Source: a virus (taxonomy: Duplodnaviria > Caudoviricetes). From it: 64,000 nt of DNA. A program made the translations under genes and the position numbers. The number at the start of each line of letters is the position of its first letter. Position 1 is the first letter of the stretch. The stretch covers positions 32,001-96,000 of the IMG/VR virus record IMGVR_UViG_3300019874_000002; one strand, given 5' to 3'. Positions 9,967-64,000 of this stretch are shown here, in pieces. Under the pieces are notes generated by a model. That model was not told the origin of the DNA, searched no databases, and saw only the letters and a program-made list of their open reading frames with translations.

Positions 9967-9984
9967 ACGCCGTATCCTTTCGCA

Positions 9985-10595: not shown

Positions 10596-10613
10596 AACAC
10601 TCTCTCACTTTCT

Positions 10614-10652: not shown

Positions 10653-10670
10653 GTCCAAGCACTCTAGCAG

Positions 10671-11165: not shown

Positions 11166-11413
11166 TACGCGGACTCCTTCGCGCTCGGAAACACAACTTC
11201 GCCGCTTGCGTCAAATTCCAATCCACACGCGCTGACAAAATCGGTGATTCGAAACCTTGGGTTGTCACTGCAAGCTACTGAGATGAAGCTTCGCACCACT
11301 TCTAGAATACCGGTCCGTACGTTTTGCACATACGAATCGTTCGGCCTGGCTTCGAAACGCCCTACCGACCTCTGAACAGCCTTGGCGATCACGATGTAAT
11401 CTTTCTTCGTCAT
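11165..11413 (-). CDS. Hypothetical phage protein
   Basis: MTKKDYIVIAKAV...DNPRF...FVSACG; start at 11413 after AGGAG. Confidence 0.7.
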   Translation of the reverse strand: MTKKDYIVIAKAVQRSVGRFEARPNDSYVQNVRTGILEVVRSFISVACSDNPRFRITDFVSACGLEFDASGEVVFPSAKESA

Positions 11414-11433
11414 TTGCCTCTCACTCCTTCGCG

Positions 11434-11494
11434 TTTGATTTAACGCGCCAAAACGACGATACAAATCGTCGCCTTGACAAGCAAATCAGCGTCG
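11434..11494 (-). repeat. 61-bp direct repeat, copy 1 (promoter-like, with palindrome)
   Basis: Identical to 11918-11978; minus strand TTGCTT-17 nt-TATCGT overlapping CGACGAT-N4-ATCGTCG. Confidence 0.85.
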
Positions 11495-11504
11495 CATCCG
11501 TCGT

Positions 11505-11900
11505 TTACCATTGCCTCCACGTGTCGAGACCGATTTGCTGTGTGTTATGAGCGACCACGAGGAATTCAAAGAAGACAGGAATAGACACCAGAACGTCTTT
11601 TAGCCATTCGCTACCAGGTTGATAACCAGGCAACGCATCGACGGCTTGGTGCACGCCAATGAACAATCCAGAGCCAATGGTAACGCCAGTCGCCAAGCGC
11701 AAGTTTGATGGGTTGGTCCCATACATCGGGTTGCTCTCCATAGCAGTTGGGTCATTGTGGAGTGCCCACATCGTTTGCCTAACGTCAACCTGCAGTGCGG
11801 TAATGCCAGCCATCGTGATGCCGGCTCGATAAGCCTTGTGCATGCGAGCAGTGCAGGAAACGCAAAACAGAAGCGCGACGACAGCCATAATTTTCAACAT
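11505..11900 (-). CDS. Predicted lipoprotein/membrane protein (paralog B)
   Basis: Start at 11900 after AGGAG; lipobox-like CVS-C; DVRQTMWALHNDPTAMESNP. Confidence 0.65.
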   Translation of the reverse strand: MLKIMAVVALLFCVSCTARMHKAYRAGITMAGITALQVDVRQTMWALHNDPTAMESNPMYGTNPSNLRLATGVTIGSGLFIGVHQAVDALPGYQPGSEWLKDVLVSIPVFFEFLVVAHNTQQIGLDTWRQW

Positions 11901-11917
11901 TTTCAATCTCCTAACGT

Positions 11918-11978
11918 TTTGATTTAACGCGCCAAAACGACGATACAAATCGTCGCCTTGACAAGCAAATCAGCGTCG
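11918..11978 (-). repeat. 61-bp direct repeat, copy 2
   Basis: Identical to 11434-11494. Confidence 0.85.
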
Positions 11979-45325: not shown

Positions 45326-46729
45326 CTAGTCGTCAAGAACATTGATGAAGATCACATTCTTCCGAGGCGCGTACAGGATCGGCGTCATGTAGATCAGCTG
45401 CATCCAGCGAATTGACGCCGCAAGCGTCGCCAGCGGAATCTTCATCATTGGCGCCAGCTGCCTCACGCTCATTGACTGCAAATTCATTTGCAGCAAATAC
45501 GCGCGCGACATTCCAGGCAGCCACTGATTGACATCAAGAAACACTGTCGTCGCCGCGCCAGTCGGACGTGGAACATCGAGCACAAATTGCTCGGTTCCAG
45601 CCGCGCCACCGACTTTGCTGCGATAGATGCGATACCCTGTCGCAGTATCCGTACCACCGCCATCAGTAATCGTGAGCGTCACGCCATCGCCTGCAGCGAC
45701 AGCAACACCACCAGGCTCTTGCACACCAGCGCTCTCGCCAAAGCGATTGAGTGCAGACACCTTGTATTGATACGTACCAGCATCGGCCGCACCAAAGATT
45801 GAAGCAGCGTTTGCACCGCTCGCAGCGGAACACGTCGGCGCCGTTGGAGCGCGCACGGACGTTGCAGCAGTCGGCGCATTCTTGACGCTGTTCTCTTTGC
45901 CACTGCGCAGAAAGATGTTTCCGCGAAGCGCGATATCCCCAGCGTTCGTTTCCATCAGCTTCGCGCTGTAGCCAATTCTACCATCCGTTTGGCCAAAGCT
46001 TCCGCGCTGACGAGAATAGAACTGCTTGCTCATATCGCTTTGTGCGCGCGGAGCAAGATACAGCGCCGAAGATATCCCGTAGTTTTCGACGACAACGTTG
46101 GTCGCCTCTTCGATTGCGTCCTCCGTGATTGGCCCACCGCGAAGATCAATCACGTTGTTTGCACTTGCAAACGGATCTCGCATGAGCTGCTCGTCAATGC
46201 CGTCGAACGAATCTGGAATGACGCTCGCTTGACCTCTGAATAGCGCGCGCTCAATGCGCATCATCAGCCAGATCGCGCGATTCTGCGTCTCTCGCGCAAT
46301 GATATTGCCGTACGCATTGCGCACCAACGTCGCCGGATGCGTTACCTCGCCTTGCGTGCCGAGGAATTTGATCATTTCCACGCGCCGCTCGTACGCCGCG
46401 TCCTGAACCTGAGGCAATTCACCTTCCTTCGTGAATGCGCCAGACTCACCGCCGTAGCTCGATTGGATCGTGTACTCCTCACTCGTCGAGAACGCAGGCA
46501 GCTTCGGAATGTCCTTCCAAAGCTTCATATGCCCTTGCGAGAAAGTGAGCACGCGGAGCGTCGCCTCGAGTGATTCCACGCGAAGCGCACTACCGCCGTC
46601 ATGGCGCGGACTCTGATTGCCTGCTGAGAGAGCTTTGCGGAGATCGTCCGCACTCATGCCTGCATTTGGGAGCAAACCGAAACCGGTAAGCCCATCGTAG
46701 TCAGACATGCCAACGTAATTGCCTTCCAT
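45326..46729 (-). CDS. Major capsid protein (Herelleviridae-like)
   Basis: KALSAG...GGSALRVESLEATLRVLTF, IERALFRG, VIDLRG, QLAPMMKIPLA; inserted Ig/Fn3-like segment. Confidence 0.92.
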   Translation of the reverse strand: MEGNYVGMSDYDGLTGFGLLPNAGMSADDLRKALSAGNQSPRHDGGSALRVESLEATLRVLTFSQGHMKLWKDIPKLPAFSTSEEYTIQSSYGGESGAFTKEGELPQVQDAAYERRVEMIKFLGTQGEVTHPATLVRNAYGNIIARETQNRAIWLMMRIERALFRGQASVIPDSFDGIDEQLMRDPFASANNVIDLRGGPITEDAIEEATNVVVENYGISSALYLAPRAQSDMSKQFYSRQRGSFGQTDGRIGYSAKLMETNAGDIALRGNIFLRSGKENSVKNAPTAATSVRAPTAPTCSAASGANAASIFGAADAGTYQYKVSALNRFGESAGVQEPGGVAVAAGDGVTLTITDGGGTDTATGYRIYRSKVGGAAGTEQFVLDVPRPTGAATTVFLDVNQWLPGMSRAYLLQMNLQSMSVRQLAPMMKIPLATLAASIRWMQLIYMTPILYAPRKNVIFINVLDD

Positions 46730-46766
46730 CTGTGACTCCTTTCAGTGTCGTTTTTGTTGCTGTCTG

Positions 46767-47779
46767 CTACGAAGCAGAACAGAGCTTCTGCTCCAACTTT
46801 TGGACAACAGCCTTTGGTAGCATTGAGAAATCGTGAGTGTTTTCGAATTTGGTAATTTCGTCCAGAGAAACGCCCTGACTCTTCAAACACATGTCCGTAA
46901 GAGCCTCTTGAATTGCGATAAACTCGACATTCTCCAATGGCGAGCCTAGCTCCGATCCGTCGATACCTGAGGTGTCCCCATTCCGAAATTGCGGTTCGCG
47001 AACATTCGCTTTTCGCAACGTCGAACCTTGCTGATTGGGTACAGGCTGATCGTGAATAGCTTTGACTAGGTCCTCCGTACTGCCTAGCTTCTCCACAATC
47101 ATCACGAGAGCCTTCGCAATCTTTGAATTGAAAGCCTTCTGATTATCACCGAATTCAGTGATCGACTTTCGCATCGACTTCATCAACCGTTTGTCACGCG
47201 AATTGCGTTGACCGGCGGTTAGGTTGTCAATCGATTGGACGAGCTTATCGAGGATTGGCGCAGCATCAAACGCAGCTTCTGCGTTTGGAGTCTCGTCGAT
47301 GAGAGCCTTTCGAATGCTCTCATTACGACGCTTCTTTGTCTGGGACGAAGATTCGCAAGCTGCGAAGCGCCGTGGGATTTACCAAACGGCTTACCTCCCT
47401 TTGCAGGTTGATCAGACGATGATTCACCTCCTTCATCCGATTCGTCATCCCCACCGCCAGCGGATTCCCCATCTCCGCTGTCGTCGTCAGATGACATCGA
47501 GTCGTCGTCATCATTTCCAGCTTTCGCTACATCGTCATCTGACGATGCGTCGTCAGATTTAGCGTACAGCGCTTTCAGTGTTTCTTCCGCTTTCCGCCGA
47601 CTCATCCCGCCCTTCATCAGACCTCTCAACGCCTTCTTCATCGCTTTCGCACTTGATTGAATATTTGTTCCCTCCGTCGCCAAGCCTCCATCGTGTGGAG
47701 CATCTTGGAGAGCATCTCCGCCCTTTTCGAGCGTTTCTAGTGACGCAAGCAACCTGGCCTCTGCTGGTGTTCTCGCCAT
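46767..47779 (-). CDS. Scaffold protein split over two frames (47219-47779 and 46767-47186+)
   Basis: Acidic, rich in K-A/K-S motifs, located before the capsid gene; the downstream frame is open and protein-like from about 47380. Confidence 0.65.
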
Positions 47780-47790
47780 AAGCTACTCCA

Positions 47791-48183
47791 TTACGCGAAG
47801 TATCCGACAATATTTCCAGTTACTGCAGTGGTCAGAAGAAACGTTCGAACAGTACCGTCAATTGACGTAACGGTAACTGTCGAAACGCCACCCACGACGG
47901 CGGACATCGCAACCACATCTCCAGGACGAAGATCGGCGATTTCTTGACCAGTAAGATCGAACACCGAACCGACTCCAGAGGCACCATCGCTCATTGCGAG
48001 CAAAAGCTGTCCTCCCACGATGTTTACGACTGACCCAAGCAAAGCACCTCCGAATGCTGGATCAACAGCTGACAGCACTGTCTTGCTATCAGGAATTGTA
48101 AAGGTTCCTGCAACCTTTACAACAAATGGTGTAAGCGGATCGCGTCCACCGACATTGAAGCGCACAAGATTCTGACGAGACAT
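47791..48183 (-). CDS. Putative head structural protein
   Basis: 130 aa, AAGGAG RBS, beta-rich. Confidence 0.6.
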   Translation of the reverse strand: MSRQNLVRFNVGGRDPLTPFVVKVAGTFTIPDSKTVLSAVDPAFGGALLGSVVNIVGGQLLLAMSDGASGVGSVFDLTGQEIADLRPGDVVAMSAVVGGVSTVTVTSIDGTVRTFLLTTAVTGNIVGYFA

Positions 48184-48234
48184 TGTTTCTCCTTTTTATT
48201 TACGAACGCCTCAACTCGGCGTCATTTGAAAAAC

Positions 48235-48573
48235 TTAGTTAGTAACCAACACGGTCCAGCGCACAGTGCATGGATTTGTTGCAACTGCGTAAACGCCAGC
48301 TGCGCCAGACTCCTTCGACGCATTGATTGTAAAGGTGTTGTTTGCGTTTTGAACCGACGCTAGACGATGAACTGTCGCCACACCTCCAGCGTCTTCAAAA
48401 TTCAATGACTGAACAACATATGACATGATGTCGACACGTCCACCTTTCATCCGAATAGCACGTCCAAGGTCGACGACTGTCGACCCTGTAAACGTGATCA
48501 ATCCAGTAAGATGACTTGATTGATTTCTCTGTTCGCCGACTCGCGGCTTTCCTGTCGCTACTCGTTTAGCCAT
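48235..48573 (-). CDS. Putative head structural protein
   Basis: 112 aa, GGAGG RBS. Confidence 0.6.
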   Translation of the reverse strand: MAKRVATGKPRVGEQRNQSSHLTGLITFTGSTVVDLGRAIRMKGGRVDIMSYVVQSLNFEDAGGVATVHRLASVQNANNTFTINASKESGAAGVYAVATNPCTVRWTVLVTN

Positions 48574-49322
48574 TAAATCCTCCGTTCCTGTTTTTCAATT
48601 ACACGCGCGAGTCGCTCGCAGGTTGCCCACGCATATTGTGGTCGATGCGACTTAATCACTTTGACTGCTTCATCGAATGATAGCTCCATCCGTCTACGCT
48701 CCACACGACCGCTCGCTAGAGCTGCACCTCCACTATGCGCTGGCGATTGACCTCCAGCAGACAGAGCTTTTCTAATATTACTCGCTTCCATTTGCTCGTA
48801 AGAACCAAATGACTTCGCGAGAATACTCCAAGAACATTTAGTGTTCACCGGAACACGCGTAATCGCAACGTCGCGAATCTTTGCCTTTAGTATTTTGTTA
48901 TCGTATCCTCGATCGACAACCTTACCTTCAATACTAAAACCGAGATGTCTAGCAACGCCACTCTTTAGCAGTGATTTAGCAAGCGTCCAAATGCGATCAG
49001 CAGGCTCGTAGTCAACAAGCAAATTACCCTCCGTCCACCAGGACCCCTTCCGTAATTCTGCCATCGACGGCACACCCACAGCATCCGCAGTCCCTTGCTT
49101 GTGGTTATCGTTAAACCAACCGTAGTTCACGAATTCTGTGAAATCCAACCCCTTTGCTAAAACACGCTCGTCCTGCCGGTCCAAATCTTCCGTGGAACAC
49201 GTTCCACCGATTGGGCGTGTTCGCTCTATATCTACTGCGCCTTTGGACAAATCAATTACAACACAGCCTGGTGTCCAAATGATAAAATCGTCTTTACCAT
49301 CTAAGATATCGTTGTCTTTCAT
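48573..49322 (-). CDS. Prohead protease
   Basis: GTCSTEDLDRQDE, GWFNDNH (His), LGFSIEG (Ser), VAITRVPVN. Confidence 0.88.
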   Translation of the reverse strand: MKDNDILDGKDDFIIWTPGCVVIDLSKGAVDIERTRPIGGTCSTEDLDRQDERVLAKGLDFTEFVNYGWFNDNHKQGTADAVGVPSMAELRKGSWWTEGNLLVDYEPADRIWTLAKSLLKSGVARHLGFSIEGKVVDRGYDNKILKAKIRDVAITRVPVNTKCSWSILAKSFGSYEQMEASNIRKALSAGGQSPAHSGGAALASGRVERRRMELSFDEAVKVIKSHRPQYAWATCERLARVIEKQERRI

Positions 49323-49325
49323 CGA

Positions 49326-50207
49326 TTACACCGTGTTCATGATGTAAATTGGCTTTGCTATATTAGCCATAGGTGTGAAAAACTTCTCGTATGTCGGAAA
49401 CGAATCAACGTCGTCATTGCCTTGACTCAACGTAATCCAAGGCATGCGGTGCGGAAACAACAACATGAACTGAACGCGCAGCCAAACATGGTCAATCTCC
49501 TCGTCCAACAACAATCCTCCCAATCCACTAACTAGATCTGACCTTTGAATTTTCTGCAACGCATCCCAAACAGGTTCAAGATCCATTGCGAATCTAAACA
49601 AATATTTGTGAGCCACACAGTGATAATTCTTTTGTGTCAATCCGAACGAACATCCGTTATCCCACCCAATTGCGCGCCAGCACGCTTTCCCATCAACAAT
49701 GTCCAAACGCGCACCATAGTTCGCAGCATGACGATCTCGAGAACAGGCTAGGTAATCTAACACCGTAAGGCGTAGCGTGTCACTAGGCGGCAGCTTATCT
49801 CTCAAAGTCTCCCGGAGAGAGATGGCCCACATTTCCCTATCGTTGGGCTTACGCAGCCTTGGCTCAATGGCAACCAACCGAGCTGAGGTCGTGTATTGCT
49901 GGTAGGACGCTGTGACACCTTCAAACTCCCCTAAAATCGTCTCTGGAACTACCTCAAATTTTGGATCATATTTGTGAAGTATTTTACACAGGCGATAGAA
50001 TGCAACTTCACGTCTTGGAAACGTCGTCACAGGAAGCCCACGTTGCAATTCACGATTGCGCTTTGTTGCAACCGTAGACGCGATCTTTACAACAGCTTGG
50101 ATACCGTTTGAATACGTAGCTAAGCGCGAACCAACTTTCCCCTCTTTCAATAGGGACATCTTTTCAGGTTTCAGCTGCTTAACCGATATTTCGAATGCGG
50201 TAGTCAC
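49326..50207 (-). CDS. PI3/PI4-kinase-like (HipA-related) atypical kinase
   Basis: AVVK lysine, REVAFY, VVPET, DRHAAN catalytic loop, WDNG Mg-binding motif. Confidence 0.75.
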   Translation of the reverse strand: MTTAFEISVKQLKPEKMSLLKEGKVGSRLATYSNGIQAVVKIASTVATKRNRELQRGLPVTTFPRREVAFYRLCKILHKYDPKFEVVPETILGEFEGVTASYQQYTTSARLVAIEPRLRKPNDREMWAISLRETLRDKLPPSDTLRLTVLDYLACSRDRHAANYGARLDIVDGKACWRAIGWDNGCSFGLTQKNYHCVAHKYLFRFAMDLEPVWDALQKIQRSDLVSGLGGLLLDEEIDHVWLRVQFMLLFPHRMPWITLSQGNDDVDSFPTYEKFFTPMANIAKPIYIMNTV

Positions 50208-51157
50208 ACTTCACACTGATGATCCATCAAAGCTCGAACGCTGTATGTAATATCGTCAGACATTGACTTTTTAGTCGACGCTATAATCTTTCCATTCGCA
50301 TCAAATGCAAATCCAGCAGGCATCTCGTGCAATTCGCATTGACAACCAGGGTGCACTACACCAATAACAGGTCGCCATTCAGTCCTCCCTGCACGTTTTG
50401 GGTGAACGGCTCTACGACCGTAATTAGTTCCGTTGTTAGCCAACTCTGACAGCCTAAACAGACGTGGTTTACGGCCGTTCGTGTACAGCATTCTACAAAA
50501 TCTACAGGCGTCTGGTTGAATCGTTTTATAAACCAGCGGATCAAACCCATCCGCAGCTATCCCAAGAGCCTTCCCGTGCTCCTTAGCATTATGTAATTCG
50601 GTAGCTACAATCAACGCCCAATCGCGTTGCGTGTCTTTCAATTTCTTTTTGAACCTACGCTCAATCTGCTCTTTAGATGATCGCCTTGCGATACCTAAAG
50701 CAATCTCGTGCTGCACTATCCCCAAAGCCTCATGCCTAAGCTTCGTCGCTTCTTCGTGCGTAGATTGTTCAAAATCATTAATCATCGACATCGACAGATT
50801 TCCGATCAATCGGCCAACATGGTCTTTGGTCGCATTAATCGCATCCAATTCGTGTTGTGAGAACTGAGGCGGCGCTGTAGCGACAAACAGCCAAAATTTC
50901 TCCGGTGACATCCGCGCCAATGACAGGTCATTCTTTGGCGCGCTCGCAGCCATTTTACCAACCGTGTGCGCTGCCTGAATTGCAACCTGAGCGTGCTCGA
51001 TGCTCCCTTGGCGCAGGATATTATTGCGAACCAACCGATCGTAATCGTCCTTAGAAACTGCGCCTGGACCTAGCACTTCAACAGCAAGCGCAAGGTGATG
51101 GTCTGCAATCAATTGCCTGACCTTCTCGCGAGCCAAATCGCTAATTGGCTTAGCCAT
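50204..51157 (-). CDS. MuF/SPP1-gp7-like head morphogenesis protein
   Basis: IVATELHNA, ACRFC, VHPGCQC; probable start MAKPIS at 51157. Confidence 0.75.
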   Translation of the reverse strand: MAKPISDLAREKVRQLIADHHLALAVEVLGPGAVSKDDYDRLVRNNILRQGSIEHAQVAIQAAHTVGKMAASAPKNDLSLARMSPEKFWLFVATAPPQFSQHELDAINATKDHVGRLIGNLSMSMINDFEQSTHEEATKLRHEALGIVQHEIALGIARRSSKEQIERRFKKKLKDTQRDWALIVATELHNAKEHGKALGIAADGFDPLVYKTIQPDACRFCRMLYTNGRKPRLFRLSELANNGTNYGRRAVHPKRAGRTEWRPVIGVVHPGCQCELHEMPAGFAFDANGKIIASTKKSMSDDITYSVRALMDHQCEV

Positions 51158-51596
51158 TGGCTTTCGCCTCTTTCTCCTCTGGCGTAGGCTCTTTACCAGG
51201 ATACGAAAACCCTTCCACACCTGGAACAGGTTTTAGCTTTTGAAACTCGCCAATTCTCAAAGGCTTCGCTCCAAACATACGCTGTCTCTCATCAGCTGTA
51301 AGCGTCTTCGTGTAATAATCGTCCGTCGCGAGCCACGAAGGTGCTTTCACGTTAAACTTCTTGCAGTAGTACCTCAATGCTGGACGAATCTTCTCAACGT
51401 ACTTTCGACGCGCCGCCATATTATCTGCAGTATGGAGCACCATTAGAAACTTTGCATAATGCTTTAGCTGCGCCTCTAATTCATCTTTCGAACGACAAGG
51501 CAACACCTTTTCAGGAGTGTCAACCTCCACACCCTTTGTCCCATCGCCGCGATTGGTCGTCCTGAAGATCACATGGTCTGACTTCTCCTGATTCAC
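51150..51596 (-). CDS. Hypothetical protein
   Basis: 148 aa, coupled on both sides. Confidence 0.65.
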   Translation of the reverse strand: MNQEKSDHVIFRTTNRGDGTKGVEVDTPEKVLPCRSKDELEAQLKHYAKFLMVLHTADNMAARRKYVEKIRPALRYYCKKFNVKAPSWLATDDYYTKTLTADERQRMFGAKPLRIGEFQKLKPVPGVEGFSYPGKEPTPEEKEAKANG

Positions 51597-54500: not shown

Positions 54501-55984
54501 ACATCTGCAAAATGAGGATCCTGCCCAGTATTGTAATCAGTGAACGCTTTGAGAGTCGCTTCTGACGTCTTTTGCAATTTACGTTTCAACGTTGACCGTG
54601 CGGCGCTGTCATTGCTGACGATACCGAGCTTTTGCGCAATCAAATCAAACACACCATCTATCGTCGCATCGGTGTGATCACCTGGAGCGTAATCGTAAGT
54701 GTTGTCAGAAGAGAACGAATTCTGTGCGTCCGTCGCCGTATACACGGCCATCAATTGCGACGCATTCAAACGCTCAAGCTGATTATCTTTCCACAGAGAC
54801 CCTAGATCACGCTTACGAGTCAGAAGCAAACCAGACTCTGGGATAATCGCGCCACGCATCCTGCGCTGCGCCACACCACCCTTAGAACCTCTTTTGATTA
54901 ACCCCATTTGATGCATCGCCACAGTCATCCGCACAGCTAGATCATTTGGGTCGTCGCCCAACATCATATCGGAAGCAAGCGGCGAAAATTCATCGGCCAT
55001 CTGCTCTGCTTTAATGTAGAACGCATTACGATGAATCTCTAATTTCTCTGCGGACGCTGTTGCAGCGGCTTGAACCTTTGGATCCTCGTGGAGTGCTTTC
55101 CTATAGCGCCCCATCAATCCACGAATAACCTCTAGAATGTCTTCTGGAGATTCGACATCTCCATATTGAGGGTCACCCACAAAGAGGTCGGCATTCGTTC
55201 TAAAAAACTCCTCCGTCGCCTCTTCAAATCCAATATTGCGACCTCCAATCTTCACAGAGATATTATGCAAACCTCCAGCCTTCTCCACGTCATTTCTCGT
55301 AATCCCAAACGAGCTTAAAACGTTGTCATAATTATCATGCCACCATTCCATGAAATTATGGTCAGCTTCGCTCAACGCATCGCTATGCAATAACGCGTCG
55401 TGTAGATCAAGCTGGTCATGCGCTGCAAATGGCTGAGGCATGTAATACTGTCGAAAATGCTCTACAACATTATCTGGTGTCGCTTGCTTTGTGAAACTAC
55501 CGTGTGGTCGCTCTCCATACCGGACATTGCCTTTATCATCCCTCCAAAACTTACCGCCACGCGAACCAGCGCGCTCCACATGAACGTAACCGCTCGGTGT
55601 AAGTTTTCGCTCCACAGGCGCGGAGCTAGACATCTTGTGTTTACCTGTTGCAGCTTGCTCGCTCGGATTGCCTCCGTACCGTCCACCAATTGGCGAATTG
55701 GACATTTTCGGCAGCTTTGGCTCTGCTTTGAAAAGCAAACGTCCGTCGCTTGTGACGACAAACGATCCGGCCGCAGACTTTTCGATACCGTCTTCTTCGA
55801 GCACAGCCATTACGTCTGCTTCTAAAGCAGACATCCGAGCACGATACAGCGCGTTCAAATCATCAGATAAAGTTTGCGTGACAGCGTGACGCATTGGCCG
55901 CATTGGAATACGCAACGTAGCTTTGATGAGCAAATCGTCTCCGATTTGCAAACCCTCAAGTAATGCGTCATCGTCAATCGACAT
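51593..55984 (-). CDS. Large SNF2-family helicase/ATPase, probable internal head protein
   Basis: PFGYQ, QDAGMGKS, IDEAH, MTATP, GGAGLNLQ, WNPAQKRQAIGRQWRTGQ. Confidence 0.85.
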   Translation of the reverse strand: MSIDDDALLEGLQIGDDLLIKATLRIPMRPMRHAVTQTLSDDLNALYRARMSALEADVMAVLEEDGIEKSAAGSFVVTSDGRLLFKAEPKLPKMSNSPIGGRYGGNPSEQAATGKHKMSSSAPVERKLTPSGYVHVERAGSRGGKFWRDDKGNVRYGERPHGSFTKQATPDNVVEHFRQYYMPQPFAAHDQLDLHDALLHSDALSEADHNFMEWWHDNYDNVLSSFGITRNDVEKAGGLHNISVKIGGRNIGFEEATEEFFRTNADLFVGDPQYGDVESPEDILEVIRGLMGRYRKALHEDPKVQAAATASAEKLEIHRNAFYIKAEQMADEFSPLASDMMLGDDPNDLAVRMTVAMHQMGLIKRGSKGGVAQRRMRGAIIPESGLLLTRKRDLGSLWKDNQLERLNASQLMAVYTATDAQNSFSSDNTYDYAPGDHTDATIDGVFDLIAQKLGIVSNDSAARSTLKRKLQKTSEATLKAFTDYNTGQDPHFADVFKMKMNDVAGKSDIMDDHLVNVAKEQARIVKILAAQEDDSFDVPLTMKDGIWNGKTLKDPNDPSKGVWEPFGYQKKYINWMMAVKRGVIAQDAGMGKSPTVIAFMEQLRAQGKDIPAVMFLPPSLMEQWPGVIAKFAPESADKILNLSGFSLEERKVALQSDLAKKARYIFISSGTLTGDVPDPNASEDENDGTGGSDHEMVKILQNLEGAVFIDEAHSGGYKKAGNTRHEIAKAVMQDREYAFGMTATPMPNDPMDLYHLANLFAPDSVGDQELWSGRMAGVAWNEDDQAYRVSNPEHLADLNKRLKPFVFYKSITDPDVVADMGKGLTKRVGVSESKEQWPDEGDLALSKVVSSENGLSQNDYFKEDGVIDTMVKLRIERLIKERRAKIEAREINPSTGERYEEHNEGALALMAGGMQMMLQRQASISPALIDASYRKSDGGIAHTPKLKAFCDDVIAHFSNSGQGGKAAKGIVAFCSFPQKAFPIIRKALAERGIDPSLIDTIAGDVAPSERGYIQDKYNKGHSKVLLTGTVSGGAGLNLQEGGNKTLFIDEPWNPAQKRQAIGRQWRTGQTEDVHEKTYRSVGTYDMMVEQKIAGKQAMVGALLGKELPTSATFDVEGSVHDLMRRVQGATFSEAQIKTIMENAKSYDLASPGQKEAEETVGSVGLSKHAKKIEALGEDWKESAAAGGRGGLSAQLTDKDFEPSKEGKANLKKRGAHALTKNFDEKEFRGQWELDRNKRNSKQKFQMANLMEQVYRDKGDNDKADHYAKQAEGLQKEYPELASEKPKTGSKKEAKGKVKAVAEQPKAAEKPKQATATVGTAERTVEKKTAQKQQKDSEDWNASPIPKGSEPSKVTSKKPNLGLEFHSSDNPFKEGSTRKVKGSEISQGEAHHFFERLTKTRSGDWNEFIKKELKPIWDDEDGRNPFSNDKAEEYMQKVVGALQSQGLMTQSMVAFGEKKKEGKS

Positions 55985-55988
55985 TTAT

Positions 55989-57299
55989 CTACCCTTCACC
56001 GTTACCCTGCGTACGGATTGGCTCGTCGTCGCCAATACCAAGATGCCCACTCTTTTCGATGTAGTCAGCGACCTCTTGGTCCGTTCCAGTTTCCCAAATC
56101 ACAAGCTCATTCGTGCCACCCTTCTTAATTGGAGGCTCGTTCCGATTTCCGGAAGTGAGCGGCTTGTGAGGGACAAATGGCTTGATGGGTGATGGTCCGC
56201 GCGGAGGTAGCTTCGCACCTCCACCAGGCAATCCTTTCGCAATCAACGCCTTCCTGCCAGCGAGATACGCGATATGATCACCTGCCTCCAGACGAGTCAT
56301 CTCCGATTTGGAGATCTTGTACCAACCATCTTTCATCTCGTCAACGTTCATACCCATCTGAACCATTTCGCTTTTGCTGATTGGGTATTCCTCTTGGTCC
56401 CCAGCTTCAGGACCGTTGCAGCTCTTGAGCAGTGGCGCAATTGCATCATGCTCCGATACGCCAGAACCAGGACGAGACGGCTCTACTTGACCGTCACCTC
56501 CAGAATGCGGATTGTCATTGTCGTCCACAACAAATTGAGGCCCTAGCCCTTTGTGGAGATCTTCATGCGTCAAGCCGTGCTTACAATGCACGCAATTGGT
56601 AATTGGAGAGTTGGAATCATTTCCAAGCTCAGCCTTAAACAGATCAGATATTGCACTCTTTGTCATGTCGTTTTCTCCTTCAGATTTACTTGTGTATGGC
56701 TGCAGAGCGCCACTCGTTTGACGATGAGCAACAGCCAAATTTTTGTGTACGGCTGCTTGCGAGACGTTTCCGGCGATCCTGTGAAATTCATGTGCGCGTT
56801 CGTGTTCTCCTGCCGCGTCATGATGCAAGAAAGCTTGCACGTGCGTCGGCCGCGATTGGCTCATATTAGCTAATGACGATTTTTGATGAGCCGATTTACC
56901 AGCAGTAACAGCCGCTGCACCGTATCCGCCATCATCTTTTGGCCCAGACCCAGGACCACCCTTCGCAATACTCACCTTTGGTTTCATCTTCGTATGTCCT
57001 TCCTTTCTACGTTGCTTATTCACCGTTGCAGCGGCAATACTTTCACTTGCTCCGCTATCTTTAATATGATTGTACTGCCTCTCATCCTTCGCATTCCACC
57101 CAGCGCCTTTTTTTACATCCGGCGTTTTAGACTTCTTTTCCTCTTCCTTTGCAGCGTGAAACTTTGGATTGACGTCAGCATTATCGTGCATTGGAACCTT
57201 CACAACGCGCGGCATATGCCCAACCGGAGCATCTACAGGCTCCCCAATATGATCGTTCGGACCATTCTTCTTTTTGTCAATCTTAACAGCCATTACCAA
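55989..57299 (-). CDS. Modular low-complexity protein, probable internal head protein
   Basis: KGGPGSGP, His/Ala-rich block, many x-K-S/G/A motifs. Confidence 0.7.
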   Translation of the reverse strand: MVMAVKIDKKKNGPNDHIGEPVDAPVGHMPRVVKVPMHDNADVNPKFHAAKEEEKKSKTPDVKKGAGWNAKDERQYNHIKDSGASESIAAATVNKQRRKEGHTKMKPKVSIAKGGPGSGPKDDGGYGAAAVTAGKSAHQKSSLANMSQSRPTHVQAFLHHDAAGEHERAHEFHRIAGNVSQAAVHKNLAVAHRQTSGALQPYTSKSEGENDMTKSAISDLFKAELGNDSNSPITNCVHCKHGLTHEDLHKGLGPQFVVDDNDNPHSGGDGQVEPSRPGSGVSEHDAIAPLLKSCNGPEAGDQEEYPISKSEMVQMGMNVDEMKDGWYKISKSEMTRLEAGDHIAYLAGRKALIAKGLPGGGAKLPPRGPSPIKPFVPHKPLTSGNRNEPPIKKGGTNELVIWETGTDQEVADYIEKSGHLGIGDDEPIRTQGNGEG

Positions 57300-57303
57300 C
57301 TCC

Positions 57304-59394
57304 TTATTGTGCCACAGGCTGACCTGGCTTTGAAGACTTCACAGGCTTTACTTCTGACGTTCCAGAAGAAGGCTGACCTTCCAGTACCTTCCCGGTGATC
57401 ACATCGAACAGCAACCCAAAGTAATCACCATCTAATCCATGAGCATCACCAAATTCGGCCAAATGTGTACTCATAAACGATACAAACTTCTGTCTCGCAT
57501 CTTCGCCATATTTCTTCTGCATCTGCATAACGATTTTCTGAATCACTGCACGTTGTACATTCAATGCAGAACAAAACTCTGCGACATTTAATGTATGTTT
57601 TGGAGCCTGTGGTTTCGAAGGATCAGGTGCACGCACATCCTTCTGATCTGGTTTTTCCGGATGGTCTGCAGCAATAGGTTCCTGGTCTGCATTTGGAGAT
57701 GGCAAATCAGGATGTGGTAATTTCGTTTCTTCTTTTTTGCCAGCTTGCATTTCTGCAGGATTACCGTTTGGTTGCTGTGACGATTGAGGTTTAGCTCCCT
57801 GCTCTCCTGGATAATTATATCTCACCTGGCCACCACTACCGAGCTTTTTGGAGCTAGCTCCAATGACCTTTGAGCCAACCTTTTTATTACTTGCTTCACG
57901 TTGATCGTCGGACATCTTAGGCAATGCCTTTACCAGCACAGCCTTCCTAAATGGAACAGTCATCCGCTTGCCTCCAATCGATAACGCGACTGAATCGAAA
58001 TTAATGTCGACAGGCTCAAAACGCTCCAATGGCGTTTTGTCTTTCTTTCCGATATATGCAAGCGTTACGTGCGGTGTAAAACCATGAACACTTCCGGACG
58101 TCAGTCCAGCTTGGCGCAACAGCTCCATCAAACTAGAATGCAATCTCGTAATGTCTGGTGAATCAACAGACAAATAAATAACATCCTTACCTTCCGACGA
58201 TTCACTAGCACTGAACCGCCCAACGCCGCTCAATGAAGCCTTGATACCGAGCGCTAGACTTGTAAATTTACGAACAACAGCAGCCGCGGCTTTCTTCCGC
58301 TTCTCGGTCAATCCTTTACCAAGATACGCGAGCGTAATGTGCATCGACTCTGGGGACTCACCGCCGCGGATAGCGATTTTATTTGCAATCTTGTCCGGTA
58401 AGTGCAGCGCGATCATCGTACCGCTGTGCGCTCCGCCTTTAATAATCAGAGTCGGCATCAACTGGTTAGCTTGTGCTAAAATCTTTACGTCTACGTCGTC
58501 ATTTAATAGCTCTAAAGCTTCAACCAACGTAACCCATTTCGCTGCTTCAACCTCTTCACCGTCAACACGAGTGACAACACTCCTAGGTGTCATAACGTAG
58601 TAATCGCAAGTACCGCCGTCATTATGTGTAAACCGCCCAAGTTTTCTATCGATTTCGCACGGTAGTCCTGTTTCTTCTTTTACCTCGCGCAACGCCGTCT
58701 CGACATTATTTTCGTACTGATTTGGATAACCTTTTGGAAACGTCCAATCATACCCACCAAATCCATTAGTAGGTTTAATCAACAAAACCTTCCCATCAGA
58801 ATTCATTACAATCCCACCCCCACAAACTCTCGTCGTGTCTTTATCTAAAACACGATTTACAAATGCGCCCTGCATCAACTGTCTGTAATTACCAGGAACG
58901 CGCTCCACCGTGTCGTCTCCAGACGGCCCCCAAACTCGTGTTGTAGATTCTGGCGCGTCTTCTAATTCTGCGGTCGCATCTCCGTACTGAGGAAGTGGAG
59001 ACTGTCTAGACCCAATCTCTTGATTGAAAACTTCCTGTTCTCGGTCCGCCCTCTCTGCATCAAACTTCGACGTCAATCGTTGCTCTGCCTCTTCCAATTG
59101 CGTACAGAAATCCAATATCGCCACGTCGTCACTATCAAGAGGTTTTGCTGTAAAACCATTACCGTTTAATGCAAAAAGGAACGGCCGATCGTGAGAATAC
59201 AAAACACCTCGGTAGCCTAGCTTCGTACGCTCGACAAATACTCTGTCAATTGGTTTCACTGTCGACAGTTCGCGAACGTCATCTCTAATCACGTCGTAAA
59301 TACCAACCGGCGCTGCCTCCAAATCACCACGAACTGGTTTGGCGTTTACAATCAGTAGTTTTGGATGCACTGAAAGCATCGTGCTATTTTTCAT
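57304..59394 (-). CDS. Nudix hydrolase + 2H phosphoesterase (Acb1/LigT-like) fusion
   Basis: Nudix box PKG...ETALREVKEETGL; two HxT motifs, HITLAY and HVTLAY. Confidence 0.85.
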   Translation of the reverse strand: MKNSTMLSVHPKLLIVNAKPVRGDLEAAPVGIYDVIRDDVRELSTVKPIDRVFVERTKLGYRGVLYSHDRPFLFALNGNGFTAKPLDSDDVAILDFCTQLEEAEQRLTSKFDAERADREQEVFNQEIGSRQSPLPQYGDATAELEDAPESTTRVWGPSGDDTVERVPGNYRQLMQGAFVNRVLDKDTTRVCGGGIVMNSDGKVLLIKPTNGFGGYDWTFPKGYPNQYENNVETALREVKEETGLPCEIDRKLGRFTHNDGGTCDYYVMTPRSVVTRVDGEEVEAAKWVTLVEALELLNDDVDVKILAQANQLMPTLIIKGGAHSGTMIALHLPDKIANKIAIRGGESPESMHITLAYLGKGLTEKRKKAAAAVVRKFTSLALGIKASLSGVGRFSASESSEGKDVIYLSVDSPDITRLHSSLMELLRQAGLTSGSVHGFTPHVTLAYIGKKDKTPLERFEPVDINFDSVALSIGGKRMTVPFRKAVLVKALPKMSDDQREASNKKVGSKVIGASSKKLGSGGQVRYNYPGEQGAKPQSSQQPNGNPAEMQAGKKEETKLPHPDLPSPNADQEPIAADHPEKPDQKDVRAPDPSKPQAPKHTLNVAEFCSALNVQRAVIQKIVMQMQKKYGEDARQKFVSFMSTHLAEFGDAHGLDGDYFGLLFDVITGKVLEGQPSSGTSEVKPVKSSKPGQPVAQ

Positions 59395-62300
59395 TTTCGC
59401 ACACGCTTTCTAATGACGATAGCCTTTGCCACTACAGGAGCGTCCTTGCCAAAGACTTTACGAACTGACGACGCGACGCGCGTCAATAGTCCAGGCTTCT
59501 TTCCTTTCACTGGAGGCGCAGCATCAAATTCTCCTTGAGGTAGTTTCTTGGCAGATTCACGCATATTGTGCTGCGTGTCTATTGCCTGCTTTGCTTCCCT
59601 ATTGCGGCGTTTCTCCTCTTCAGACATATTTGCATTTTTTGCATGCGCGCGGTCCACTGATTCTTGGCGCTCCCTAGCCTTCCGTCGGTCGTCTTCGTAA
59701 AAGTGTTGCTGCTTCTGTGCTTGAGTCATCCCGGCTAGTGGGTCAAACGGCTTGTGCACATAACGAGGTCTTTCCTTTGAAAGCTTCTCCAATGGAGACA
59801 ACTCTCTTGGTTCCTCAGGCTCCTCACGAATTCTTTGATTGTTTCCAATCACAAAATCTGGCGTATCTGCGTACTGCTGTTCCACAGAAGCCGATACGGC
59901 CGGTTCATTCTCCTCGTCGCTACCAATCCGATGGTGCCCAATACGTGTAATCGCTTCACGCTCCACCGCGGCACTGGCATCTGCGCGCGCTTGATTCTTT
60001 GCTTCTCGTTCATGATAGCGTGCAGCGGCTTTGTCCTTTGATTCTTTGTAAAACGCGGCACGATTCTCCAGGTCTTTTTGCGTCTCAACGTACGTAGTTT
60101 TGACCTCGCCACGACGTTTAATACGCTCAGCCTCCAACTCTTTCTTTACTTTTACCTTCGCTTCTTTCACCGCCGTCACAACGGCTTTATGCTCGTCATG
60201 CTCACCAGCAAGCTTTGCAATCTTCCGGTCTAATGAGCCATGCTTCTTTTTGTCGACAGTTTTCTTTTGTGCCTTGAGCGCAGCCATCTTCTCTTTAATC
60301 GTCTTCATCTGGTCACGGTGCGCAGCCTCTGTATAGCTGTGAGTCTCAAGTTGCTTTTGATGTCCACGCAAACGCTCTCTTGCGTCAACAACATGGCGTG
60401 CAACATTTGAACGTTCCGAGTCTTCTGCGCCTTGCTTTCCATAAACAACATCACCATGGTCATTACGGTACCAAATACCGCCACGCGACCCCGGTTGCTT
60501 GACGATATTAATGTGCTTTAGGATATCGCTCAGAGCATCATATGCGTCAATGCACTCTGCAAATGCCTTTGCTAGATCGCTCCCCTTCGCAACCTTCAAA
60601 GCCTTCCGTTGCTCCTGCTCAAACTCCACAATGTGCAAACGATTCTCGTGCTGCCTATACGCAGCATGTTGCCTCGTTTTCCAGGTTGCCAAATCATTAC
60701 TCGTCGGCATATCGCGCACCGCCAAACGCGACATGTACTCTTTAACCATTGGATGCGCCCCACCAAGAGCATTAGCGGCGGCAGTAAATTGAGCTACCGC
60801 TTCTTGGTCTGCACCTTTGGTATTATGCAGTTTAACAGCTGCTTCGTGCAACTGCACAACACCGACTTTTTCATGCCAATTCGTATTACCTTTAGCATCC
60901 GTCACCCACGCACCAACATCTTGCGCGGCCTGCATTGTACCATGCGCTTGTTCATGCACTGGTGCCAGATTAGGAATCTGCTTGAGATTCTGAACTAGCT
61001 TGTAATGCTCATTCAAAACCTCTGCTTTCTGCTGCAGCTGCTTTGGGAGCGTTACATTCTTTATTTGCGCTGGCAGATTCAAATCATTTGCGATGCCAAG
61101 CTTTACAGCCAAATCTCGATTGGAACCTGGTTGCTTAAAAAACGTAATCGCTGGATGCTCGTGAGCACGAACATGTTGAACCTTCGGCTCCGCCAGCTTG
61201 GGCATTTGAGCCACAGGAACGGCCGTCCGATCCTCAATCTCTCGACGATTGAGTTTTGCCACCTTCGACTCGAGACGAAGCCACTTTTCAACCACCAATC
61301 CATCCGGTGTCAAACCGCCTTGTCGCGTCTTCAATCTATTATTTACGTGCTCTAAAGCTGCGGCGTACCACTTCTCCAAATGGTATCCTTGCTTATCAAC
61401 AGAGAGTGTCCCTAGCAGCGCCTTCTTTCCTTTGGGCAGCTCTACAGTGACACCAGCAAGCTTTGTGGCAATTGATGAAACACCATGCTCGCTACCAGTC
61501 CACGGACGGCCCCAATGCAATCCAGCTTTGCCGTACTTCTCTTGATGCCTCGCGCGTTGCTCATTGAACGCGTGCTCTTGTGATTTATCAGGATGCGAGT
61601 CGTCATCGTCCATCCACAAACGCGATTCTAACGCATAACGCATATGTGGCGGTAGATCGGCGATAGCTTCTCGAATAATCTTCTTTGCAATTGGCTCGTA
61701 GTGATGCAGCTCAAAATGCTCCCTCGGAGAAATCATCTTCGGAGCTTTGTACTCCTCCTCCTCGTGGAGATCTTCAAGCGCTGTTGCCCCAAGCTCAATC
61801 GCGGCTTGCTTCGCAAACTGCTCGAGATGGTTCTTAATCGCGTTCTCTGCGCGCAAATCAAAACGGCTGTACTGGCCTTTTGGCTCGTCATTTGGAACGT
61901 ATTTGTTCGCTTGATCGAGGAGCACTGCGACAGCTTCATTAAACATGTCACGCTCGCGATCATACATATAACGCTTAGCAGATGACTCCGCCAACTTTCC
62001 AGCATAACCCTCCCTATGCGTTACCTCATCCATTTCTCTATAGATGTCCGTCGAAGCGAACACACTACCAAACTTGCGAGTCCACCTTCGGATAAAAGGC
62101 GCCCATTCCTTCAACAACTGCTCACGAACGCGTTTGCTCTTATTGTCAGGGTTCCAAATTCCCAATGTAATGAGCGTCGTCAGCGGCCGACCTTCTGTTC
62201 GTGAAAGCTCATGTTGCAATTGCGCAGGAGAATCAAACTTATTCACCGCCCACATTGGAAGCGGACTGATCTCGCGTTTACCTACAACCTCGTCGAATTG

Positions 62301-63101
62301 ACCTTCGCGATCAGCTCGAGCTTTCGCCTGACCAGCTTCCGTCTTGGCGTGACTTGGTTTTAGCGCTCGCAGTGACGCGTCGAGATACGCCGTCGCAATC
62401 ACGAGCGGATCCTCTTCTGCAGTTAAAGGCTCTCCGATTGATGTCCGGTTCTCCGGTAGCCTCTTAGGCACATTGTGGATACCCAACTCTTCAATCGTCG
62501 GTTCAATCTCGTAAACACCGTACGGTCCGTGTTCATGCACCTCACGCACACCACCGAGGGGCCGATCGTGTGTTCCAGTTGCTGGCAGTTCAATCTTGTC
62601 TTTGGTCGGCACGGGCTCACGAGGCTGTGCTTCGACCTTATATTGCGTAATCTTCTTTGGGAGTCCTTCCTCACTACCGCCGTATGCTCTAGCAACGGAT
62701 GAATCCCTAAACTCAAACGAAGTGTACCCTTTGTGTCTTTGAACTGGATCAACAACGACTTTGCCCCTGTCTGTTGTCCGAGTCCGGTACTCAATCAGTA
62801 AACCACGCTTCTGCCAAAACCTGCCGCCCTCTTTGAAACCGTATTCCCCGAACAACTCCCTATTAATTATCTCCCTGATTGCAGCTTGCCCAGTGACTTG
62901 ACCCTTCTCGTCAAGCTCATTTTCATTGGGGTAAACATATTCAACCGTTCCATCCGAGAGCGTGATCTTTGCAATGTATTTGTGCGCCGCACCTTTAACA
63001 GACTTCTCGTCATATCGAACATTGCCATGCTCGTCTAAACGAAACTTAGCACCCCTTGCCCCAGGGCGCTTTACGTTCTCTGCTTTGAAAAGGAGCAGCA
63101 T
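59391..63101 (-). CDS. Large multidomain protein with sigma70-like region
   Basis: REQLLKEWAPFIRRWTRKF...DMFNEAVAVLLDQANKYVP...SRFDLRAENAIKNHL (region 2-like); IIREAIADLPPHMRYALESRL (region 4 start-like); coiled-coil C-terminus. Confidence 0.6.
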   Translation of the reverse strand: MLLLFKAENVKRPGARGAKFRLDEHGNVRYDEKSVKGAAHKYIAKITLSDGTVEYVYPNENELDEKGQVTGQAAIREIINRELFGEYGFKEGGRFWQKRGLLIEYRTRTTDRGKVVVDPVQRHKGYTSFEFRDSSVARAYGGSEEGLPKKITQYKVEAQPREPVPTKDKIELPATGTHDRPLGGVREVHEHGPYGVYEIEPTIEELGIHNVPKRLPENRTSIGEPLTAEEDPLVIATAYLDASLRALKPSHAKTEAGQAKARADREGQFDEVVGKREISPLPMWAVNKFDSPAQLQHELSRTEGRPLTTLITLGIWNPDNKSKRVREQLLKEWAPFIRRWTRKFGSVFASTDIYREMDEVTHREGYAGKLAESSAKRYMYDRERDMFNEAVAVLLDQANKYVPNDEPKGQYSRFDLRAENAIKNHLEQFAKQAAIELGATALEDLHEEEEYKAPKMISPREHFELHHYEPIAKKIIREAIADLPPHMRYALESRLWMDDDDSHPDKSQEHAFNEQRARHQEKYGKAGLHWGRPWTGSEHGVSSIATKLAGVTVELPKGKKALLGTLSVDKQGYHLEKWYAAALEHVNNRLKTRQGGLTPDGLVVEKWLRLESKVAKLNRREIEDRTAVPVAQMPKLAEPKVQHVRAHEHPAITFFKQPGSNRDLAVKLGIANDLNLPAQIKNVTLPKQLQQKAEVLNEHYKLVQNLKQIPNLAPVHEQAHGTMQAAQDVGAWVTDAKGNTNWHEKVGVVQLHEAAVKLHNTKGADQEAVAQFTAAANALGGAHPMVKEYMSRLAVRDMPTSNDLATWKTRQHAAYRQHENRLHIVEFEQEQRKALKVAKGSDLAKAFAECIDAYDALSDILKHINIVKQPGSRGGIWYRNDHGDVVYGKQGAEDSERSNVARHVVDARERLRGHQKQLETHSYTEAAHRDQMKTIKEKMAALKAQKKTVDKKKHGSLDRKIAKLAGEHDEHKAVVTAVKEAKVKVKKELEAERIKRRGEVKTTYVETQKDLENRAAFYKESKDKAAARYHEREAKNQARADASAAVEREAITRIGHHRIGSDEENEPAVSASVEQQYADTPDFVIGNNQRIREEPEEPRELSPLEKLSKERPRYVHKPFDPLAGMTQAQKQQHFYEDDRRKARERQESVDRAHAKNANMSEEEKRRNREAKQAIDTQHNMRESAKKLPQGEFDAAPPVKGKKPGLLTRVASSVRKVFGKDAPVVAKAIVIRKRVRK

Positions 63102-63102
63102 G

Positions 63103-63999
63103 TTAATTCAAATCAATCTCAAAAAAGTCCATATCAATTGATTTCTTGACACTGCCCAATTGATCATGGTGTGCAGACACAATATTTTTCGCACCTGACA
63201 GTCCGTCCGCTTCACCGAGCTTTTGGAACGTTTGACCTCCCCCAGGTTTATAGCTCACAGATGCACGATTAACGACCTTATCGTGACTGATCGAGTACAT
63301 CCCATGAGTCGCAATACCTGCGTGATAATCAGTTGCAGGTGACTTCATCGTTCGTTTGAAACTGACAGTACCGTGAAATGGTTTGGGGCCAGAACCAGAA
63401 CCGCCTTTATACAAATCGTTATCTCTCACAGATGAATGCACGCTGGACTCCCAATCGTTTTGCTTCAGGAAACGAATGTTGTCGTCCTCTTCGTGAGATT
63501 CGTCTTGAGGTTTTGAACCTCGCGCCATTGCACCAAGCTTTTTACCAGCATCTTTCGCCGTCGGAGATGGCCCGTCTCCAGCATTGCCAAAACGGTTTGC
63601 GTACGGTTGCTCTGGAGGCTGTTCCTCGTCACCACCTTCATCACCACCAGGAGCGCCCATTCCAGGCGGCATTCCGCCAGCACCTCCGCCTTGCTGTTCT
63701 GCCATTTCCTTCTGCATGAGATACTGAAGGTAAACAGGATTGGCGATCACATCACCATGCTTCACTGGACCGACATCATCCAATGCGCGCAGCTCATTGA
63801 TAGTGACGTGCGTTTGACCTTGCTTCTGGCGCAGCTCTGCAGCTTGTTCCTCACTCTTCGCATCGAGACCTACGAGCACAAACTCAAAATCCTCATCGAT
63901 ACGGTCAACGATGTTCCGATTGATGAAGGTTTCAAAGAAGCGAAGGAGAGGCTTTAATCCTCTGTCCTTTGAAAGCTTCTGCTGAGCTTCGTTATTGCC
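63103..63999 (-). CDS. Portal protein, C-terminal part (5' end outside the window)
   Basis: Frame is open to the window edge: SKDRGLKPLLRFFETFINRNIV...FVLVGLD...TINELRA...GDVIANP, matching Herelleviridae-type portals. Confidence 0.85.
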   Translation of the reverse strand, partial: GNNEAQQKLSKDRGLKPLLRFFETFINRNIVDRIDEDFEFVLVGLDAKSEEQAAELRQKQGQTHVTINELRALDDVGPVKHGDVIANPVYLQYLMQKEMAEQQGGGAGGMPPGMGAPGGDEGGDEEQPPEQPYANRFGNAGDGPSPTAKDAGKKLGAMARGSKPQDESHEEDDNIRFLKQNDWESSVHSSVRDNDLYKGGSGSGPKPFHGTVSFKRTMKSPATDYHAGIATHGMYSISHDKVVNRASVSYKPGGGQTFQKLGEADGLSGAKNIVSAHHDQLGSVKKSIDMDFFEIDLN

Positions 64000-64000
64000 C

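Follow-up and report, generated by a model that had tools for sequence, protein, structure and literature searches.

Gene order of the head module and distribution of a lysine motif

The stretch of 64,000 nucleotides analysed here (the window) corresponds to bases 32001-96000 of the single-contig virus record IMGVR_UViG_3300019874_000002 (118,719 bases), the ~119-kb genome of an uncultured phage, and contains a head module in which a short hydrophobic-x-Lys motif recurs. All genes in the window are on the minus strand. From position 63999 down to 45326 the head genes encode, in this order, the portal protein, a 1236-amino-acid (aa) protein, a 696-aa protein with Nudix and 2H phosphoesterase domains (Nudix-2H), a 436-aa protein, a 1463-aa SNF2-type helicase, proteins of 148, 338 and 293 aa, the prohead protease, two small proteins, the scaffold and the major capsid protein (Table 1). 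The protease gene sits between the portal gene and the scaffold and capsid genes, after the cassette of putative cargo proteins. NCBIfam returned no match for five head proteins. For comparison we used 13 related head modules from IMG/VR with a G+C content of 43-64% and protease identities of 41-73%, one of which is a complete 117.9-kb genome; the motif pattern described below recurs in all 13. The whole analysis is computational, and we infer cleavage, packaging and ejection from sequence, alignment and predicted structure.

The original prediction for this locus had noticed the motif at domain borders of head and cargo proteins and proposed that the prohead protease cuts the cargo into small, separately ejectable enzymes. 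Every motif instance listed there is present in the protein named for it, the scaffold IRK↓AL lying in the shifted frame of a split gene. We defined the motif as [LIVFM]-x-K followed by A, G or S (the arrow marks the bond after Lys) and derived expected counts from within-protein shuffles. Head-operon proteins of the window carry 0.90 motifs per 100 aa versus 0.27 in the other 53 open reading frames (ORFs), that is, 56 observed against 26.5 expected (ratio 2.12) versus 37 against 40.4 (0.92). The anticipated excess over background is there, but it is confined to four ORFs, each with P <= 0.001: the protease (9 observed, 1.13 expected), the first and second halves of the scaffold (5 and 0.80; 6 and 0.84) and the 436-aa protein (11 and 2.10). 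None of the three large cargo proteins shows an overall excess; their counts stay near expectation in the window, with 5 versus 5.1 for the 1236-aa protein, 5 versus 3.2 for Nudix-2H and 10 versus 7.5 for SNF2. Scanning the whole genome added a single strongly enriched ORF, just upstream of the portal gene and outside the window.

When families were pooled over 14 phages (the window and its 13 relatives), the observed/expected ratio was 7.2x for the protease, 6.2x for the scaffold, 4.5x for the 436-aa family (80 vs 18), 3.1x for the pre-portal family, 2.6x for the MuF-like family (that of the 338-aa protein), 1.5x for the portal, 1.25x for the Nudix-2H/topoisomerase family and 1.1x for SNF2. 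The 1236-aa family is depleted (0.64x), and the 148-aa family has no motif at all (0 vs about 6.7 in 12 orthologues). Shuffles restricted to 40-residue blocks reproduce these family ratios.

A pattern of this kind could in principle arise by chance from composition, or from amphipathic-helix periodicity in Lys-rich helical head proteins: scaffolds are both helical and Lys-rich, and short motifs are easily spotted by eye. The 4-7x excess, however, holds in whole-protein and 40-residue local shuffles alike, and it is specific to the motif. Taken together, the scaffold, protease, 436-aa and pre-portal families of the 14 phages contain 357 motifs versus 70 expected (5.1x), whereas in the same four families control motifs with Arg, Glu, Asp or Gln at P1 reach 0.7-1.1x (Glu 0.80x), control classes at P1' 0.3-0.9x, and all controls, other spacings included, 0.3-1.5x; proteins outside the head operon show no excess either. 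On the strength of the control motifs and local shuffles, composition or helix bias was rejected and is, in our judgement, extremely improbable. Around the Lys, P3 favours L, I and M, P1' favours S, G and A, and P2' favours L and M.

Sites in the capsid, scaffold and protease

The major capsid protein carries a counterpart of an annotated maturation site. In the RefSeq record of Listeria phage A511, whose mat_peptide annotation is our source for the cut position, the mature capsid protein (Cps) begins at Ser24, after Lys23, in agreement with the Lys-Ser bond named in the original prediction. K32 of the window protein, A511 Lys23 and SPO1 K23↓A fall into one alignment column, and Lys followed by Ala or Ser is kept at this site in 10/10 aligned relatives. 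In SPO1 itself a motif excess is found in the protease (8 vs 1.6) and in the scaffold (11 vs 1.3, all K↓S).

The scaffold gene of the window is interrupted by a frameshift near 47330-47345, where frame 0 ends in a low-complexity tail and frame 2 carries on the homology. In the relatives the scaffold is a single ORF of 263-374 aa with 9-14 motif sites each. An indel introduced in assembly is the probable cause, a real or programmed shift being less likely.

The protease is 36-46% identical to annotated Herelleviridae proteases (CP-51, SPO1 and others; tblastn). His74 (FNDNH) and Ser130 (GFSIEG), which are invariant in 11 clade members and have FDHD and GFSVEG as counterparts in SPO1 gp3.2, would form the catalytic pair. 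The invariant position of K170 fits, as expected, self-removal of the C-terminal tail that follows. Within this tail, residues 178-236 (48615-48791) copy residues 25-84 of the capsid protein (46478-46657), with 42% identity over 60 residues. The similarity (E 8e-7) includes the cut site R-K↓A-L-S-A-G and is present in 4/10 clade members tested; the copied capsid arm may serve protease recruitment or timing.

Some other enzyme could conceivably act at the cargo joints described below, for instance a host trypsin-like protease or a phage protease so far not recognised as one, with the 293-aa protein as an example, or cutting could take place only after ejection. The specificity of the prohead protease is here read from sequence, and no function has been assigned to either the 293-aa or the 148-aa protein, which leaves room for such an enzyme. 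On the other hand, the protease tail and the scaffold are filled with the very same motif, which in the capsid falls at the counterpart of the A511 head-maturation cut, and a separate enzyme of identical specificity would be less economical. We consider this explanation very unlikely.

Sites at the ends and joints of the cargo proteins

The 1236-aa protein is a fusion of two modules. Its residues 40-727 match an 893-aa protein of a relative, and residues 860-1229 match the C-terminus of an 1858-aa protein of the same relative (see below). DLAK↓AF (K845) corresponds to the near-C-terminal site of the unfused relatives and so falls at the fusion joint of the window protein. Where the start of an orthologue is clear, the motif closes a leader of 6-12 residues, and in the family a single site lies 3-36 residues before the C-terminus. 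The body between these ends is poor in sites, with 13 versus 31 expected across the family.

A similar distribution, with sites gathered at the N-terminus, is found in SNF2. K21-A22 and K86 are kept in 16/16 and K69 in 12/16 proteins (homologues of 32-83% identity). K21 and K86 stand out as conserved within an otherwise variable region, and K86 is followed by a variable Pro/Lys linker and a PGSRGG tag. Across 14 orthologues the first 120 residues contain 37 sites versus 7-8 expected, and the remainder 78 versus 92-95. The protein is predicted to lose its 86-residue leader and to stay at ~150 kDa. Separately, some SNF2 homologues carry added GNAT or ADP-ribosyltransferase (ART) domains.

The 436-aa protein differs from the large cargo proteins in that its enrichment is overall, and an ORF at this position is motif-enriched in every relative. 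It has no Pfam or PHROG match, and a single-query search of viral contigs returned nothing. By its site content it is predicted to be shredded in the manner of a scaffold or core protein.

Nudix-2H is laid out as an N-terminal carrier domain, Nudix, the IIK↓G joint, the 2H phosphoesterase, the FRK↓AVLVK↓A joint and a Lys-rich tail. The two joints that the original prediction had placed between the enzymes (LIIK↓GG) and after the 2H domain are both conserved: K319, just before 2H, is kept in 28/29 homologues, including those without Nudix, and K489, in K↓ALPK after 2H, in 23/26. In the AlphaFold model (mean predicted local distance difference test score, pLDDT, of 72) residues 319-321 and 486-494 drop below 50 next to well-folded domains; they are the only short low-confidence segments flanking the 2H domain, as expected of flexible loops. 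We classified the 128 motif occurrences of the Nudix-2H family by position. K319 accounts for 28 of them, the post-2H joint with its inserts for 34, the C-terminal region for 21 and the 131-189 linker for 6; another 33 belong to the Nudix box (FPK↓G) or to the first of the HxT motifs (YLGK↓G), and just 6 lie elsewhere in domain bodies. In the window protein, two of the five matches fall in these two catalytic motifs.

In homologues with extra modules after 2H, each insert is flanked on either side by further sites, the inserted modules being a ParB-like sequence and a GNAT domain (precomputed Pfam list). Payload-free relatives consist of the same N-terminal carrier domain, a K↓ALP site and the tail. 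In the relative IMGVR_UViG_3300028831_000229 a eukaryotic-type DNA topoisomerase IB catalytic domain (Pfam E 6e-32) replaces Nudix-2H on the same carrier domain, within an 1858-aa head-module protein (7510-13086). The extra domains seen among SNF2 and Nudix-2H homologues comprise ADP-ribosyltransferase, LAGLIDADG (precomputed Pfam list), GNAT and ParB-like domains, a variety that points to rapid module exchange.

Many junction sites are followed by the recurring tag PGSRGG, about ten residues and G-x-V-R-Y. The motif lies at most 16 residues upstream of 17/43 tags, compared with 9.8% of random 16-residue stretches; the 26 tags without a nearby motif are mostly from SNF2 orthologues, whose site lies further upstream. 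The tag matches no Pfam family, apart from a weak DUF4124-like hairpin match (E 0.03).

Among the portal proteins, 12/12 have a C-terminal D-L-x-K site with S, G or A as the next residue. The insert between two sites occurs in the window portal and is absent from the 11 others. Two further proteins are encoded upstream of the portal gene (genome positions 97161-99175, 1.2-3.2 kb past the window end). One is a 272-aa CxxC protein with 5 motifs versus 1.1 expected; the other, of 375 aa, contains VVK↓SLLIK↓A and then a PGSRGG tag. Both belong to the same system.

Among the three smaller proteins encoded between SNF2 and the protease, a relative's orthologue of the 338-aa protein has a weak Phage_Mu_F match (E 0.0037, below the Pfam cut-off), and SP-10-like phages encode relatives of this protein under the annotation minor capsid protein. 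The MuF-like protein also occurs in SP-10, Nachito and LysYB1, where the portal and protease genes enclose no cargo cassette. The mechanically assigned GTG start of the 338-aa ORF overlaps the 148-aa gene (51158-51220), and orthologues begin at the equivalent of Met22. Met22 is probably the true start, in which case the motif matches at K3 and K10 would not be translated. The strong motif avoidance of the Lys-rich 148-aa family suggests a protein that probably stays intact inside the head.

Table 1. Features of the head module in window coordinates. The arrow marks the bond following the motif Lys.
Feature	Position	Strand	Remark
Portal protein, C-terminal part	63103..64000	-	gene runs past the window end
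Portal site LYK↓G (K583)	63403-63414	-	conserved
Portal 88-residue insert, residues 584-671	63142-63405	-	between two motif copies
Portal second site VKK↓S	63139-63150	-	before conserved hydrophobic tail
1236-aa putative cargo, two-module fusion	59391..63101	-	homology to two proteins of a relative
6-residue leader MLLLFK↓A	63081-63101	-	motif-ending N-terminus
Joint LAK↓A (K845)	60564-60575	-	fusion joint
C-terminal site VAK↓A (K1226)	59421-59432	-	
Nudix-2H putative cargo, 696 aa	57304..59394	-	Pfam NUDIX 193-305, 2H 323-482
IIK↓G joint (K319)	58435-58446	-	between Nudix and 2H
FRK↓AVLVK↓A joint	57925-57951	-	after 2H domain; includes K489
436-aa protein, 11 sites	55989..57299	-	enriched; no known family
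SNF2-type helicase, putative cargo, 1463 aa	51593..55984	-	Pfam SNF2-rel_dom and Helicase_C
Predicted SNF2 N-terminal leader, residues 1-86	55727-55984	-	sites K21, K69, K86
Three conserved head-module proteins (293 aa, MuF-like 338 aa, 148 aa)	49326..51596	-	orthologues in all relatives
148-aa protein, 12% Lys	51150-51596	-	no motif in any of 12 orthologues
Prohead protease, 249 aa	48573..49322	-	PHROG 1028, E 7e-44
Predicted self-cleavage site K170 (LAK↓S)	48810-48821	-	invariant, directly after catalytic core
K185 (IRK↓A) in protease C-terminal tail	48765-48776	-	tail copies capsid N-arm
Scaffolding protein, at least 11 motif sites	46767..47779	-	split into 186-aa and 139-aa ORFs
Major capsid protein, 467 aa, SPO1/Herelleviridae type	45326..46729	-	Pfam SU10_MCP; ~36% identity to SPO1-like capsids
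Predicted capsid maturation site LRK↓A (K32↓A33)	46631-46642	-	aligned with A511 and SPO1 sites

A probable cleavage code and its relation to known systems

The distribution of sites resembles that in T4 and in the phiKZ/SPN3US group, and for this reason we interpret the motif as a code for cleavage by the SPO1-type prohead serine protease, at whose sites the cargo would be trimmed and cut at joints; we regard this as the likely explanation. The cargo is probably trimmed and cut in this way rather than minced. That the large cargo proteins are minced throughout, as the original prediction implied, was rejected, given the lack of overall enrichment and the depleted or neutral bodies (13 vs 31 in the 1236-aa family, 78 vs 92 in SNF2). 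Its idea of small enzymes survives for the predicted release of 2H and in part for the 1236-aa fusion, and fails for SNF2, which would stay large. As for the prohead protease being the cutter, comparison indicates that the motif behaves as a recognition site; cutting, packaging and ejection are predictions.

Under the cleavage-code reading, a prohead would assemble from portal, scaffold, protease, capsid protein and the cargo encoded between the portal and protease genes. The protease would then take the first 32 residues off the capsid protein, shred the scaffold and the 436-aa protein, cut off and degrade its own C-terminal tail, and trim the portal at both ends. The cargo would lose its leaders, a 6-residue one in the 1236-aa protein and in SNF2 an 86-residue one severed at three sites, and would be cut at exposed joints between modules. 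In this way the 2H phosphoesterase would be freed, as a product of ~18 kDa, from the Nudix-bearing carrier and the Lys-rich tail, and the two halves of the 1236-aa fusion would be separated. Folded cargo domains, avoiding the motif, would survive. New modules would enter between two sites, often with the PGSRGG...VRY tag just after the cut.

One may argue instead that the motif is a protease site in capsid, scaffold and protease only, and that its copies in the cargo are kept for another reason, for example because they sit in a linker or tag with affinity for DNA, scaffold or portal, the cargo being uncleaved or not packaged at all. The absence of overall enrichment in the large cargo proteins agrees with this. 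Many junction sites, moreover, lie inside a longer element (the PGSRGG tag, K-ALPK) that may be conserved as a unit, and several conserved matches are catalytic motifs. However, junction sites without a tag do exist in exposed loops (K319↓GG, portal K583↓GG and the short N-terminal leaders), and T4, phiKZ and SPN3US offer precedents for cargo processing (PMC9026906, PMC10052503). The avoidance of the motif in cargo bodies and in the 148-aa family is also hard to explain unless these proteins meet the protease, and we take it as indirect evidence that both share the prohead with it. We consider this reading unlikely.

Several observations weigh against the cleavage-code reading. Conserved functional motifs such as Nudix FPK↓G, 2H YLGK↓G and protease AK↓GLDF match the pattern and cannot all be cut, and the conserved SNF2-core matches K729, K809, K822 and K986 lack an explanation. 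For packaging of the cargo, the evidence consists of where its genes lie and of its avoidance of the motif. Because orthologues share ancestry, the pooled P values make the excess look more significant than it is. The A511 site (ALK↓S) has its Leu at P2, not P3, and the A511 scaffold is not enriched (2 vs 1.5), from which it appears that the motif preference varies within the protease family. The protease itself has no PDB sequence match, its 11 clade members gave no S77 or S78 match in Pfam at loose thresholds, and its AlphaFold model (mean pLDDT 50) is too poor for a fold search. Finally, no cargo protein or clade member from a cultured phage was found among 50,697 phage records.

Of the known systems, phage T4 offers a close parallel. 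A single gp21 motif serves there for capsid maturation, shredding of the scaffold gp22, self-cleavage and leader removal from IPI-III and Alt, and a 10-residue leader suffices for targeting proteins that are packaged and ejected (PMC9026906). The short motif-ending leaders of the 1236-aa family (6-12 residues) and the three-site SNF2 leader are reminiscent of this. T4, however, cuts after Glu (L/I-x-E), and the window has Lys, Glu at P1 being no more frequent than expected (0.80x); T4 internal proteins are small and single-domain, while the present cargo is multi-module, up to 1463 aa, with predicted inter-module cuts; and the protease family differs, the window protease having no Pfam S77 match. 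The system would thus work like T4 targeting without being a member of it.

Similarly, in phiKZ, 201phi2-1 and SPN3US (gp175, gp245), portal, capsid and ejection proteins carry N-terminal propeptides of 20-254 residues, which contain several motif copies and are cut into pieces; the protease also cuts off a C-terminal propeptide of its own, and many head proteins are motif-free and intact (PMC10052503, PMC5694885). Recombinant SPN3US gp245 showed activity by itself (PMC10052503). Shredded scaffold and protease segments, removal of the capsid N-terminus, multi-cut leaders on portal and cargo, and motif-free proteins are common to both, experimental there and predicted here. The differences lie in an A-x-E-type motif cut after Glu, in the fact that all cuts mapped in that group remove propeptides and none separates enzyme domains, and in the evidence, which there is mass spectrometry and here computational.

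The Herelleviridae (A511 Cps; SPO1 gp3.2, gp3.3, gp6.1) are related by homology, with capsids ~36% and proteases 36-46% identical and the capsid site in the same column, and the SPO1 protease and scaffold share the motif excess. SPO1, A511 and SP-10, however, lack a cargo cassette between portal and protease. In a limited literature search we did not find the motif stated as a general code for the SPO1-type protease family.

As to the cargo, the polyvalent proteins described by Iyer et al. (2017) from phages and conjugative elements are multi-domain effectors encoded in virion modules for which delivery with the DNA has been predicted and processing into domains proposed; SWI2/SNF2 ATPase, 2H phosphoesterase, NUDIX, GNAT, ART and ParB-like domains are among their typical parts (PMC5512222). 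The window conforms in encoding NUDIX and 2H in one protein of the head module. Polyvalent proteins are also linked to a MuF (SPP1 gp7-like) head protein, for which the 338-aa protein, through the sub-threshold Phage_Mu_F match of its orthologue, is a candidate here. Processing by a built-in metallopeptidase was proposed for polyvalent proteins (PMC5512222), whereas here the joints carry the prohead protease motif, and neither Pfam nor PHROGs detects a peptidase domain in the cargo proteins. The new element would be this predicted cutting between modules of polyvalent-type proteins. In the Dar system of phage P1, the methylase-helicase DarB, DdrB and others are packaged, injected and protect incoming DNA, some members being proteolytically processed before or during packaging (PMC9024508, PMC5512222). 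Both systems would load large helicase-type proteins into the capsid, packaging being conjectural in ours, but in sequence they share nothing more than the helicase superfamily. In P1, DarA and Hdf are needed for loading, which is not known to use a shared protease-site leader.

More tentatively, with chances that fall slightly short of even, we speculate that plug-in loading is general in phages with SPO1-type heads, in that any module placed between two hydrophobic-x-Lys sites on a carrier is packaged, freed by the maturation protease and injected. Candidate carriers would be the portal tail, the N-terminal carrier domain and the SNF2 leader, often with the tag after the cut. If so, sequence would be enough to read off the mature virion proteome and a set of exchangeable anti-defence modules (Nudix, 2H, topoisomerase IB, GNAT, ART, ParB-like).

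If the cleavage code is right, the cut map of head proteins and the mature forms of the injected enzymes would be predictable from sequence in a large group of uncultured phages and probably in the Herelleviridae that serve therapy and food safety. The code would also account for the conversion of polyvalent proteins lacking a peptidase of their own into working enzymes, and motif avoidance would flag proteins that meet the protease. A simple leader-site-module-site rule for loading foreign proteins into capsids would follow, comparable to the use already made of the T4 targeting sequence. Nudix, 2H phosphoesterase, SNF2 and topoisomerase IB would then be factors injected in the first minute of infection, which bears on counter-defence against nucleotide-signalling immunity.

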